Shown: piece by piece, positions 20,525-31,270 of the stretch
How the letters are laid out: each line of letters opens with the position of its first letter
Numbering within the stretch: the first letter of the stretch is position 1
Assembly: GCA_965655095.1 (NCBI GenBank)
Contig: OZ296657.1
Location: 56,482,001-56,546,000, forward strand
Length of the DNA stretch: 64,000 bases
Direction: 5' to 3'
Origin: Haplodiscus bocki
Lineage: Eukaryota
Program-made: the position numbers and the translations under genes
The notes under the pieces: model-generated
The model's input: only the letters and a program-made list of their open reading frames with translations
Database searches by the model: none
What the model was told of the DNA's origin: nothing

Positions 20525-21854
20525 TAAACTGTAAACAATATTACTCCGAAAATGATCAGCTCGACAGTGTTGTCTAGTTGTTTTCAAAATGCAGTTCAAG
20601 TCTCAAACTAGACGCCGCAACATCTGGGTAGTACATCTGAACGTTCGCTTCCTGCGTGGAAGTCAAATCAAAGACCTAGACAAAATGGTGTGCTTAATCA
20701 GTCAAAGAAATATCAGGTCCATCTTCGTGGAACTTGAGCGCTTTCATTTTAGTCACTTCTACTTGTTTCTCATCACTTGTCTTTCAACCGACAATAACTT
20801 GATTTCCTCTGACTAAGTTGATTTCTCTCACTCCAAATTTCTGGTAATGGAATGGATTACTTTTCATTGTTCCAACAAATGCCTTGTTTGCATTCATCGC
20901 AATTGCAATCCTCCTGACGGGTGCATTATTGAAAATATTCTCCTGGATATTCTGGTTTTGTCCTTTTGGGATAATGAAAGTTTTTGAAAGCATCTCAGAA
21001 AAGTTGTATATGCCTGGTTGATGTTGAACAGATTTTTGAATCAACTTCAACGCGTTGTCATTGATCGCTCTTTGTCGAGTAACGAGTGAAGCCTTTGTGA
21101 TTGTAGCCCGATATTGAATAGTATCATCCCCTGCAATGATGTAAAACTTGGGTCGCAATCGAACTAAACGACTTCGTACGGAGACATTAGGTAAAAGGAA
21201 CTTGTCACAAGTAAAAACATCAACCAGTTTCCCATACAGACTCACTTCATCTTGTCCAGCAGTTAATTTCCTAATAGCAAATGGTTCTTTGCTAAAATCT
21301 TCGGGTCCTTTTTTAAGAATAACCGTGACAGAAGCCCAAAGACTCATGAGTTCCTTTGGTGACTGAAAACTCTGTCGATATAAAAGCTTTGTGTGGATGT
21401 AAGCCGTTGGAAGCATCGACTTGTTCATTTTTGTAAAACACTTTACAATTAGAGAAGAGAGAATACAGAGAATTGTTGACTAGGTACACATCATCAGTTC
21501 CTTCGAGATCGTTTGCATTTTTTCAACTTTCATTTTGAGATAAAGGTGTGTCTCTTCGAGGTCATGACGAACATTCCGATCTATTTCCGGTAAAAAAAAG
21601 TCAATACTTGATTCCTTAAGTGAGTTAGTTGCGATAGTTTTGGACCAATTGATTGGTTCCCAAGTACGGATTTTATCAAAAATTTCTAGTGATGAGTGTG
21701 CAACTGTTTTTGGAGCCGATATTTTTTTCTCAAATTTTTTTGAAGCAGCTTCCCCGACTACGTCGCGATTTTCCTTCTGGTGAAATGGTTTTCTTTTCCT
21801 TTGAAGTTCTTTCCGATTTTCTTCTTTTCTGTCTTGTTTCATCGCCTCCACCAT
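20525..21854 (-). pseudogene. Polinton major capsid protein (double jelly-roll)
   Basis: HSSLEIFDK..DLEETHLYLKMKV, LYGKL.DVFTCDKFLLPNV and ENIFNNAPVRRIAIAM..FVGTMKSNPFHYQKFG; several frameshifts and deletions. Confidence 0.82.
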
Positions 21855-22090
21855 ATTGCTTAAGAGTAGATGATGCTGTTCTTTTTACAGCTTTTTTTGA
21901 TTGAAGATTTTCGCGACGGCACATTTCGAATTTCTGGAATTGCGGACTCTAGGGCATCTCGTCTTGTTCGTTTGGCAGCTGGTAAAATATGTTTCCGTAA
22001 AATTGGAAAAGCGATAAGTGCAATTGTTCCAGGTAATGCCCCAAGTCCTCGACCTCGATGTCTTGGCATTCCTCTAAAGTATGGTATTGT
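21730..22090 (-). pseudogene. Polinton basic core-like protein with GRGLG putative protease site
   Basis: YFRGMPRHRGRGLGAL.. with a K/R-rich tail. Frameshifted here but open (112 aa) in copy 2 at 26353-26691. Confidence 0.6.
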
Positions 22091-22217
22091 TTGTGGCCCC
22101 TCCTCTCCTTAGTTAAGTCTTTCAAACAAATGATCGAATCGTTCTTTTTCGGAACATTGAGTTCAAACGAGAATAACCAAAACGAAAAAAGGCGATCAGA
22201 TATCCGTCGGAAGATCT

Positions 22218-29300: not shown

Positions 29301-29734
29301 TTTCTGGTGTTCCAGGAGAAAGATCAATCATCGGATGACCAAACAGTACTGATGTGGCATCCTTGTACCAATCTGTCATCGGCTACCCAAGCCAAACTAG
29401 TTTCCCAGCACCTGAATCTGGTGTACATCATCGCGTCGATTTGAAGAGTACAATGTGGAAGAGTTGAAGTTCGGCATCTGTCGTTGGGACTTTTTTGAAA
29501 TAATTCATGGCTTTTGTACAGACAGTTCAAATTCCGATGTTTTCCAGCTGTTGCTAATTTGCTGAACTCTTTGGATGTAGACAGCTCTTCAGAAACGTCA
29601 TCAAAAATCAACAAGAAATTTTTCCCTTTAGTATGGAGCTGCTTAATCATTTCGAAATAAACAGGTCTAATGAACTCGATGTTCGGAACATCTTCTATCA
29701 TTTTGTCAAGCGTTGATAATATTGTTAAAAGTAC
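26309..29734 (-). mobile_element. Polinton module copy 2 (tandem duplicate of 21686-25113)
   Basis: Nearly identical sequence offset by 4621-4623 bp: core protein 26353-26691, mCP 26839-27540, integrase 27575-28450, ATPase 29107-29734. Confidence 0.93.
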
Positions 29735-31270
29735 ATTCGTATTGGCAGAGCGAGTTGGCTAGATCCTCTTCAATATTTGACAAAAGAGATTGGATAGCTG
29801 GTTGCGACAATTTTCTTTCTAGCGCCTTTAAGGATGAAGTCGCACGCCTCAGCAATCTCCGTTCTGCTGCCTCGGCTCAGGTTTTCTTTCCTCTTCTTGA
29901 ATGTTCGATAATGGACCTGCTTCTCTGCTTTCCTCTTTTCTGCAGTATTCCCCTGTTGCTCTTGCAGTTCTGACTGTTTCGGGATGGGGGTTTTCGTCTG
30001 CACCAAGAAGCTCGGAGACCAACGTTCGTCTGCGTCTGGTGTCCAACCAAATGAACGCTTGTACGTGTGTAGCTCCGAGAGCTCGTTTTTGAAGTTGGAG
30101 AGTATTTGAATCCAGCGTCCCCATTTTTGTTGGCATAGGTTTCAATGGTGTGTTTTGGATTATTGATTGTCGCAGTCCAATATTTTCCTTGTGGAGTTGA
30201 TTGTCTGCGTTTATGCATGCTTGCTCGCAGTCCATAAGCTCTTTTTTTGTACGCAGTTGAATTCATAATATCTATAATACGTGCAGTCATGTCAATACAT
30301 TGAAGTGAGCAGAAGTCACAGTATTACTCTGCTCACTTCTCACTTCTATTCACCTTCCATATAAGGAAATAAAATAAGCTGATGTAAGTTTGTGAGAGTC
30401 GTTAAGCAATCAGATTTTTTTCAGATTAGTCATGCCTTCGTGGTTACGTCGTCGTTATCCAGATTTTGGTTAGTATTCGAGGCGCAGTAGACAGCGTGCT
30501 ATTCGATCTTTTTGAAGATACATTTACGGTCGTCGTCTTAGGAAGATGTATTCGCGTAAGCGTCATTCATCTAAGCGTGTTACAATTCAGCATTTTAAAT
30601 GTAGATTTCATGAGACGTGGTCTAGATGGAGTGGTAAATGTCCTATTTTGTGGTTTCCTGTGTTCTATATGCAAGATTCACTTTTTGACAAAATCACATA
30701 TTATGAATAAAAGATACTTGAATTGAAATGTCAATTTTTTCCTAACTTTTGTGCTGAACAACCTGAAAATGCGTCTGGTGCTTCTCGAGGTCAATCTACT
30801 CACTTGAATATGCGCTGTTTGCGAATAGGTCCTTCTCCCACTGCTGGTAAAGATCCTGACTCTGGTTATTATACTACTGCAGAAGCTTTTGAAGATGCAA
30901 AGTTGTATTATGTCTGGTATCAAAACTTTTTACACCTCCAAATGTGCCGCGTGGGGTTACACGCTAACGGAAGAGATACAAGCTGACCCTGCTCCCGATT
31001 ACACAACCATCGTTCGTCAGCCTCTTAGTAATCGGCGCTGGTATACTTTTGGTGATGAGGTCGATTATTATCCTTTTCATTTCGGATTTGATCGCAATAC
31101 CTCAGATGATTATGATATGGTGTGGACGATATACATTGAAGTCCGGAATTTTGTGATTCAAGGCGTTACACCTCCCCTCTCTTGTCACCCGGCGGAGCTT
31201 TTTCGCTTCGACATGTATCTTGTGAAAAAAGCAATCAAGTTAATTAGTCTTGAGCAATAGGACCAATGAA

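Follow-up and report, generated by a model that had tools for sequence, protein, structure and literature searches.

The locus raises the question of how a chimeric unit of Polinton and CRESS virus DNA, with a viral origin in it, came to stand twice in tandem, and whether viral replication had any part in this. The preliminary description had proposed that whatever amplifies the CRESS array also captures flanking DNA, and that the unit, as a circle, would be an origin-bearing replicon and a route for gene exchange between ssDNA and dsDNA viruses. Coordinates are those of the window, i.e. the whole stretch of 64,000 nt that was analysed; positions beyond its end are given as window equivalents.

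A decayed Polinton with a nested CRESS array

The locus is bounded by inverted repeats starting with AG and by a 6-bp target duplication, as is a Polinton. The left terminal inverted repeat (19627..19713, + strand) begins AGTAGT and is 92% identical to its partner at window equivalent 93030-93116; the target-site duplication, AAAGAC, has its left copy at 19621..19626 (+) and its right copy after the right inverted repeat, 29.1 kb past the window end. The entire array of ~64 kb, with its several CRESS genotypes, is nested in this one Polinton, between both inverted repeats and the two copies of the target duplication. The Polinton genes lie on the minus strand. A remnant of the double jelly roll MCP gene with 4 stops (20580..21722, -) was identified by tblastn; sequence searches against Pfam and PDB left its family unnamed, and the name comes from a fold search, in which a 49%-identical homologue folded like the capsids of iridovirus, virophage and PBCV-1. 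The broken frames at 21860..22900 (-) occupy core-protein-like and minor-capsid-like positions and may be these two genes, to judge by gene order and motifs; they had no Pfam match, and the minor capsid piece, used as query, returned nothing in the homologue search. Integrase and ATPase remnants, previously described in the unit, were recovered as weak matches: the former (23251..23517, -, with 2 stops within the stretch) to an rve integrase from contig C6 (E=4e-4), the latter, a packaging ATPase in three frames whose 5′ end is truncated by the CRESS array (24368..25113, -), to Pox_A32 (E=6e-4, which misses the Pfam cut-off), with 60-69% identity to the copy in a relative on C2. Judged from these matches, the Polinton set of MCP, ATPase and rve integrase appears to be present in the form of remnants. 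A protein-primed PolB was not found: in the relative on C2, it would lie in a 5.5-kb segment that has no counterpart here. The PolB of that relative, which had no Pfam match, is presumed from motifs. The focal Polinton is a deletion derivative.

The left end of the array joins the ATPase gene, with 2-3 bases shared. From there, the first 182 codons of a CRESS Rep (25114..25675, -; two frameshifts and a stop) are followed by the hairpin of origin 1 (25682..25717, +) and by the 5′ half of cap (25814..26308, +), a putative gene without Pfam match, called cap because of where it lies and because its start is arginine-rich. The type-A array (29735..55697, +), in which origin 2 lies at 30303..30338 (+), consists of head-to-tail units of 1.88-1.92 kb with ambisense rep and cap, every Rep frame being broken; adjacent units differ by 1.0-4.1% (12 pairs). 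It is followed by rearranged 2.6-kb units (55696..62526, +) with two origins that stem from two genotypes and with junctions at 55697, about 57372 and 62526. Position 57171 is where two genotypes cease to be similar, the breakpoint itself lying at about 57372. Type-B units begin at 62526 (62526..64000, +) and the array runs on to window equivalent 89337; it includes a LINE insert and a type-C block in which frames are open. A hairpin with NANTATTAC lies between the ambisense rep and cap, as in a CRESS origin, and no hairpin in the type-A unit is more stable than that of the origin. The origin pattern search gave 47 sites; an origin-like match on contig C3013 was discarded, there being no CRESS sequence around it. 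The search for Rep homologues gave 17, none of them carrying a name. In the genome, open Rep frames of 324-331 codons lie 46 kb downstream and on C6, and on open frames PF02407 (HUH) and PF00910 (SF3 helicase) were detected. Type-A Rep is broken in 15 of the 15 units examined, with a stop at codon 226 common to all 13 full units; PF00910 was also matched by a type-A unit whose stops were translated as X.

The tandem unit and its two copies

Unit copy 1 (21686..26308, +) is a chimeric Polinton and CRESS sequence of 4,623 nt, and copy 2 (26309..30927, +) continues directly into the CRESS array. Alignment of 21686-26310 to 26309-30927 gave 99.2% identity over 4,626 columns, head-to-tail. The repeat from 26309 and the scarcity of differences in its Polinton part, both previously noted, were borne out: over 21686-25113, the copies differ at 4 positions in 3,428 nt (2 substitutions and 2 one-base indels). 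The CRESS part (25114-26308) has 31 differing columns in 1,195 nt, its first 217 nt being identical. Each copy has, as claimed, exactly one CRESS origin, with the hairpin nonanucleotide CAGTATTAC at 25698 and 30319, i.e. with a spacing of 4,621 nt. The CRESS half of copy 1 carries private alleles, and in copy 2 the alleles switch from copy-1-like to next-unit-like at 29881..29952 (+): the CRESS half of copy 2 underwent a secondary exchange with the adjoining array unit. This exchange, like the nesting of the array in the Polinton, had been overlooked in the preliminary description.

The duplication is real in the assembly. That the assembly itself erred, by writing two haplotypes or a chimeric read in tandem, is very improbable, even though none of the listed contig pieces crosses 26308/26309, the CRESS halves are far more divergent than the Polinton halves, and the sequencing runs come from one study, possibly the source of the assembly. 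Against such an error stand the private alleles in the copy-1 CRESS half, a seamless join with microhomology and no gap, and the depth data: in three runs of one sample, contig depth doubles over the duplicated part (ratios of 2.08, 1.67 and 2.24), which fits two chromosomal copies without large excess in that sample, and the contig across 21686 has mixed depths of 87.0, 51.0 and 22.7, compared to 85.9, 48.3 and 22.8 expected for a step from one to two copies there.

Rare circles would escape detection in contigs. If a 4.62-kb circle had been excised and closed through a cap-MCP join, then copied and recombined into its own locus by homology, the same head-to-tail structure would result, and the unit does contain one origin. 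However, this takes more steps than direct duplication, and no depth excess is seen; a search of the 1.5-Gb genome found two near-identical copies of the unit's Polinton part (among the matches listed, at least 9), and dispersed copies of unit or junction were absent from the genome matches listed (at least 20 and at least 9). We therefore consider such a re-insertion to be very unlikely. As to gene exchange, the origin-to-origin layout expected of a releasable replicon is there, but the proposal of a circle and of gene exchange lacks direct support. The unit holds no intact gene of either the Polinton or the CRESS virus (the acceptor site being ~12 codons into the MCP gene, it contains the MCP start only), and at 4.62 kb, against ~1.9 kb for the CRESS genome, it is 2.4 times the virus length, outside the packaging size of a satellite; it would thus be a poor vehicle. 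A fused cap-antisense frame spanning the junction (26210-26734) had no Pfam match.

Junction, breakpoints and background duplications

The new junction (26301..26310, +) joins cap, 610 nt 3′ of the nonanucleotide, to the 5′ end of the MCP gene. Cap sequence ending in TATCAAAA before CT is fused there to Polinton TATCAAAA(ATTT)CT (acceptor at 21674..21687, +), confirming the microhomology reported between the two genes: 8 nt are shared with an offset of 4, plus 2 nt directly. An 8-nt match this close is found by chance in 0.5% of random donor/acceptor pairs, or 1.4% with the donor fixed; the microhomology is beyond chance. The junction had been thought worth seeking at other loci, where it proved to be absent: it has a single occurrence in the genome among the matches listed. 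A junction at the Rep nick was ruled out, the focal breakpoint being at +610.

Rep could nevertheless have started the event. An intact Rep, from another unit or from an infecting relative, may have nicked the chromosomal origin, with synthesis of ~600 nt into cap, a stall, and microhomology re-priming 4.6 kb upstream, in the manner of AAV target-site duplication or of flank capture by Helitrons and ISCRs; the origin-to-origin product could release a chimeric circle. We hold this route to be possible, though on balance doubtful. It is favoured by the clustering of breakpoints: five of the 13 mapped virion-sense exits, including the focal donor, fall within 35 nt of cap (four of the five in the focal array; scan P=6.5e-4, or 0.025 counting 26 ends, the site being picked post hoc), and seven within +585 to +749 (P=0.003, also post hoc). 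The hairpin at this cap site is unexceptional (rank 86 and 46 among 191 windows in type A), so that host repair has no strong hairpin to account for the recurrence of the donor site. At other loci, four junction ends lie within 2 nt of the Rep nick and a fifth close by (P about 7e-7, assuming 26 ends), and two of these CRESS loci, both with a nick-site junction, also have duplicated flank DNA, which likewise speaks against a purely host process: on C7, a 1.1-kb CRESS piece starting at the nick has at its sides 535 nt of a Polinton integrase gene in duplicate, and the end of another C7 array is duplicated with 150 nt of flank, at 98%. Rep frames are open 46 kb downstream and on C6, and HUH and helicase domains occur in open frames of this genome, which makes Rep action in trans possible. 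On the other hand, the focal junction is away from the nick; the type-A Rep remnants are only about 51% identical to the open type-C frames, with different origin stems; and an A/T-rich tract at the cap site may by itself favour microhomology joins. Direction lends this route no support, since a tandem duplication is compatible with either strand.

Duplication is, moreover, common in the background. Head-to-tail repeats with a period of at least 500 nt and at least 90% identity were found in 7 of 40 background 10-kb stretches, which were placed arbitrarily at round coordinates and are not random draws; one case is a two-copy duplication of 1,035 nt (99.7%) in Polinton DNA. A related Polinton on C5, without CRESS match and thus a CRESS-free control, carries a 1.4-kb integrase-region array at 98-99.7%. 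The same stretches gave no sign of targeting of Polintons by CRESS elements: Polinton DNA lies within 5 kb at 3 of 8 CRESS loci and in 17 of 40 stretches (Fisher P=1.0), a count that becomes 4 of 9 with the extra C7 insert, most background matches being to a different Polinton family.

Age and order of events

The Polinton parts of the unit copies differ by 0.12%, whereas neighbouring units of the array differ by 1.0-4.1% and the two inverted repeats by 8%; judged by these divergences, the duplication is roughly ten times younger than the divergence of the array units. Stops and frameshifts were found in MCP, integrase, ATPase and Rep, and those in integrase, ATPase and Rep within the unit are common to both copies; all Polinton genes, and the local Rep with them, had been broken by the time of the duplication. 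One could still imagine an AAV-like target duplication dating from the first integration of CRESS concatemers, of the kind present at the C7 insert. But copies that are 99.9% identical and have inactivating changes in common, at a locus where array and inverted repeats have diverged by 1-8%, contradict this dating, except in the case that all 3.6 kb were made uniform by recent conversion, and we give the idea almost no credence.

The +610 junction, the single young event, the genes broken beforehand and the common background repeats together make host repair the likeliest cause. In our opinion the 4.62-kb unit probably arose by a single, very recent tandem duplication through host microhomology-mediated repair, in an already decayed Polinton and CRESS array; taken by itself, the duplication is in all likelihood a normal outcome of repair. 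The order of events would be as follows. The Polinton was inserted first, leaving its 6-bp target duplication. CRESS concatemers then entered it and now stand where about 5.5 kb of its centre would be, possibly by Rep-catalysed joining, to judge from the nick-site junctions at other loci. The type-A array would have expanded, perhaps by unequal exchange, after the Rep stop common to its units arose. Next, a break in cap at +610, or a fork stalled there, would have been rejoined 4.6 kb upstream, in the MCP gene, via the 8+2 bases, by template switch or end joining, the origin being a passenger. Finally, unequal crossover or gene conversion may have replaced the CRESS half of copy 2 by the neighbouring unit's sequence, as the allele pattern suggests.

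Of the proposal that the array's amplifier also captures flanks, one part thus stands: flank and CRESS DNA were duplicated together, here and at two other loci. Nothing links the event itself to the array-building process, given the +610 junction, the ~10x younger event, the common Rep stop, the single locus and the CRESS-free Polinton duplications elsewhere. More speculatively, and we think improbably, Rep in trans might still be working chromosomal CRESS arrays: nicks would let new genotypes join, synthesis would derail ~600 nt into cap and capture neighbouring DNA, and of such products the 4.62-kb unit would be the latest, able to be released origin-to-origin as a Polinton-CRESS circle. Should the shared cap breakpoint depend on Rep, endogenous CRESS arrays would actively give rise to local rearrangement and would not be inert fossils.

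Comparison with known systems

Chromosomal head-to-tail arrays of Rep-encoding ssDNA units with a hairpin nonanucleotide, as here, are known from the endogenous geminiviral sequences EGV1 of yam and GRD of Nicotiana (PMC5014472) and from the tandem CRESS element of Giardia (PMC7493932). Unlike these, the focal units retain rep and cap, with several genotypes per array, nesting in a Polinton and a duplicated unit of flank plus origin. Liu et al. 2011 (PMC3198968) described circular ssDNA EVEs that had integrated once and were then duplicated along with flanking DNA, an event of the same type as our unit, and EVEs in transposon coding regions; unlike the focal locus, the available text mentions neither Polintons nor tandem arrays.

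Capture by HUH enzymes (AAV, Helitron and ISCR type) proceeds by nicking and then copying of adjoining DNA, in good agreement with the C7 insert and its target duplication of 535 nt, whereas the focal junction is off the nick and later than integration; Helitrons and ISCRs, besides, take DNA past the element's 3′ end, and the focal unit takes DNA upstream of the origin. An origin-to-origin layout lets Rep release circles by replication from tandem origins (PMC3187698), and two origins flank the unit here also. Begomovirus host-virus minicircles and SEGS-2 episomes are helper-replicated circles of non-viral DNA with a viral origin (PMC8513466), but SEGS-2, at 1.2 kb, is demonstrated and packaged, and for a unit of 2.4 times the virus length encapsidation limits argue against a similar fate.

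Look-ups gave no earlier account of this DNA, and in the literature we found no CRESS array described as lying within a Polinton, though subscription papers and supplements may contain one. Several CRESS integration junctions are preserved in this genome to the exact base, and four coincide with the Rep nick; whether Rep catalyses integration into the germ line of an animal-type host thus becomes directly testable. A parallel is the parvovirus-in-Polinton intermediate proposed for Bidnaviridae by Krupovic and Koonin 2014 (PMC4061559): there as here, an ssDNA virus has integrated into a Polinton scaffold whose termini are intact. The differences are that the virus is a CRESS virus, that the Polinton centre (the PolB site in the relative) was lost, not gained, and that the junction-adjacent genes are all broken, without sign of mobility. 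If Rep did act in trans, the locus would be a present-day ssDNA-virus-in-Polinton hybrid of the sort proposed for the bidnavirus origin; in any case, the nesting of an array of ssDNA virus units inside a Polinton, so far only a hypothetical step in virus evolution, is seen here with the target duplication and both termini intact.

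Structure of the duplicated unit

Comparison of the window with itself gave 99.2% identity between 21686-26310 and 26309-30927, which confirms the preliminary description of a 4.62-kb chimeric unit repeated in tandem from 26309 with few changes in its Polinton part, where only 4 of 3,428 positions differ between copies. The part derived from CRESS (Rep/cap circular ssDNA virus) shows 31 differing columns out of 1,195, none in the first 217 bases (Fisher P=3e-14 for the difference in rate between the parts). As also described, each copy holds exactly one hairpin origin (CAGTATTAC; 25698 in copy 1, 30319 in copy 2), and there is microhomology where cap meets the MCP gene (26308/26309, 610 nt from the nonanucleotide): cap TATCAAAA|CT is joined to MCP gene TATCAAAA(ATTT)CT, a match of a quality found by chance in 0.5-1.4% of random pairs.

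The gene content that had been claimed stood in part. A homologue with 49% identity, whose fold in a fold search is like that of iridovirus, virophage and PBCV-1 capsids, confirms the MCP label at the unit's edge, but only the first dozen codons lie within the unit. The ATPase and integrase labels are weakly to moderately supported, whereas a homologue search with the minor-capsid piece found none; this label and that of the core protein are tentative, assigned by gene order and motifs. The accessible part of PMC8502044 does not settle the gene names.

Age of the duplication and support from depth

The copies differ by 0.12%, versus 1.0-4.1% for adjacent array units (12 pairs), and the breaks in integrase, ATPase and Rep are common to both; the 4.62-kb event therefore came much later than the array, in decayed DNA. 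Since the stop at Rep codon 226 is the same in 13/13 full units of CRESS genotype A, the type-A array itself spread after Rep death. With this dating, a duplication made at the first CRESS integration is extremely improbable. Copy 2 is recombinant, being copy-1-like to about 25260-25331 (copy-1 coordinates) and then near-identical to the next unit (3 differences to it versus 22 to copy 1 in the 611 nt after the switch), and thus a second exchange took place after or along with the duplication.

The region is present in four contig sets, all of one study. In three runs from one sample, the depth of the duplicated Polinton DNA relative to the single-copy arm was 2.08, 1.67 and 2.24, and the contig across 21686 had depths of 87.0, 51.0 and 22.7, where 85.9, 48.3 and 22.8 are expected for a step there, although depth over contigs cannot be read as copy number and the assembly itself may have been built from these runs; coverage in the fourth run was patchy. 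None of the contig pieces listed bridges the cap-MCP junction, with 335 further pieces outside the listing; the junction is seen in the assembly, while the depths fit a duplication and make an assembly artefact very unlikely.

The unit had also been proposed to act, as a circle, as an origin-bearing replicon. The two origins that now flank it form a layout permitting replicational release (PMC3187698), and circles of host and viral DNA that depend on a helper have been described in begomoviruses (PMC8513466). However, such a circle, 2.4 times as long as the virus genome, would run against the encapsidation size limit described in PMC3187698 and would carry no intact gene; there was no depth excess beyond two copies in the sample seen, rare circles being invisible to such data. 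While some circle may have arisen, its re-insertion into its own locus is hardly credible as the source of the duplication.

A mixed-genotype array nested in a Polinton

The window is part of a 92-Mb contig. The Polinton extends from 19627 to 93116 (numbering carried on past the window's end), with inverted repeats 92% identical and target duplication AAAGAC. Within it, the CRESS array occupies 25114 to 89337 (~64 kb), in place of ~5.5 kb that in a relative on contig C2 runs from the ATPase gene start through what we take, from motifs, to be the PolB region. Mosaic in structure, the array combines at least four CRESS genotypes, in the order A, recombinant in 2.6-kb units, B, C and B again, with a LINE insert. 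The type-C block starts on the nick or directly behind it and shares ~92% identity with an array on C6, which suggests that later viruses may have joined an already existing array. A stretch of ~680 nt (89338-90015) separates the right end of the array from the point where the Polinton resumes; it matches neither the C2 nor the C5 relative.

Other features were seen nearby. A LINE on one side and a copia-type element on the other enclose a retinoblastoma-family gene (5820-8390, plus strand), which seems to lack introns, its 856 codons forming one open frame; its PDB matches are human only, and its presence makes an animal host likely. To the left, some 5-17 kb outside the window, lies a four-copy 2.9-kb tandem repeat (97-99%) with a 180-codon open frame, which matches in inverted orientation the end of another Polinton, located ~47 kb beyond the window's right edge.

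Junctions at other loci

The genome holds four more CRESS arrays and several solo copies. On C6 (77.597-77.644 Mb), a 24-origin array with a period of 1,921 nt, its units 99.9% identical and their rep and cap frames open, abuts Polinton genes on one side. On C7, a 1.1-kb CRESS piece (57.893-57.894 Mb) starts at the nick within a Polinton integrase gene, between 535-nt target duplications 91% identical, and an array of period ~1.88 kb (12.70-12.746 Mb) has its end at the nonanucleotide; a 98% identical duplicate of the terminal 0.8 kb plus 150 nt of flank lies 44 kb upstream, and a gypsy element stands between the two. An array on C2 (55.742-55.753 Mb) alternates between two genotypes, the changeovers lying close to the origin. 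Gypsy elements stand beside two arrays (positions 4450-5367 of stretch L061 and 3-1869 of stretch L070), one with a weak Macro-domain match, the other with a Monjiviricetes-type fusion glycoprotein gene.

Four junction ends at these loci lie ≤2 nt from the nick (C6 array end, C6 internal 732-nt unit, C7 array end, C7 insert), and the join at window-equivalent 76030 is close to it (P about 7e-7 for clustering, 26 ends assumed). A second site emerged in cap, between about +585 and +619 when counted from the nonanucleotide: 5/13 mapped virion-sense exits fall within 35 nt of each other there, at 26308, 55697, 62526 and equivalent 76030 in the focal array and on C8, where an array (55.94-55.97 Mb) mixes 1,906-nt units with ~1,570-nt deletion units broken at this site. 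This clustering (P=6.5e-4; 0.025 when 26 ends are counted) spans divergent genotypes, but the site was found post hoc, with positions transferred by eye from an alignment; neither LINE ends nor homologous crossovers close to origins entered the count, nor did three solo copies and a single end that could not be read. No strong hairpin was found at the site.

Origin of the duplication

These junctions bear on the main alternative, in which Rep nicks the origin and, after ~600 nt of synthesis, switches upstream. The ends at the nick, the cap exits, the flank duplications at the C7 insert and C7 array end, and open Rep frames 46 kb downstream and on C6 all argue for it, but those Reps are 51% identical to type A, with a different origin stem, and we regard this route as possible but doubtful here. 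Rep may well have had a part in the original CRESS integrations.

The genome is itself prone to duplication. Kilobase head-to-tail repeats occur in 7/40 background 10-kb stretches, one of them, in Polinton DNA, with two copies 99.7% identical, and a related Polinton on C5 that is free of CRESS DNA carries six copies of a 1.4-kb unit in an internal array (28.734-28.742 Mb; it covers the integrase region, with one junction type bearing a 24-nt insert). In another, on C2 (35.669-35.675 Mb; target duplication GATCGT), a 43-nt sequence repeated in tandem takes up ~6 kb in the region of the right inverted repeat. Polinton DNA is present in 17/40 background stretches versus beside 3/8 CRESS loci, so that nesting in Polintons is not enriched. 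The focal junction, sought genome-wide (1.5 Gb) at further loci, appeared once among the 20 matches listed, and the Polinton part of the unit as two near-identical copies among 9 listed, both counts being lower bounds. We therefore lean towards host microhomology repair, which would have made the 4.62-kb duplication before exchange with the next unit altered copy 2; it was probably an ordinary event. The preliminary interpretation is thus partly supported: flanking DNA was indeed duplicated with CRESS sequence here and at the C7 insert and C7 array, but the focal event came much later than the array in which it lies. What merits following is the nested mixed-genotype array, the nick-site junctions and the recurrent cap breakpoint.

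Comparison with known systems

The literature searched, which did not extend to subscription papers and supplements, describes no Polinton with a CRESS array inside it. Yam and tobacco (PMC5014472) as well as Giardia (PMC7493932) are known to carry endogenous CRESS elements in tandem arrays, and such elements have been duplicated together with their flanks and inserted into transposons (PMC3198968). An ssDNA virus inside a Polinton has been proposed as the bidnavirus ancestor (PMC4061559). The C7 insert, with its target duplication, has an integration footprint like that of AAV, whose target duplication is cited in PMC2761290 and PMC5714925.
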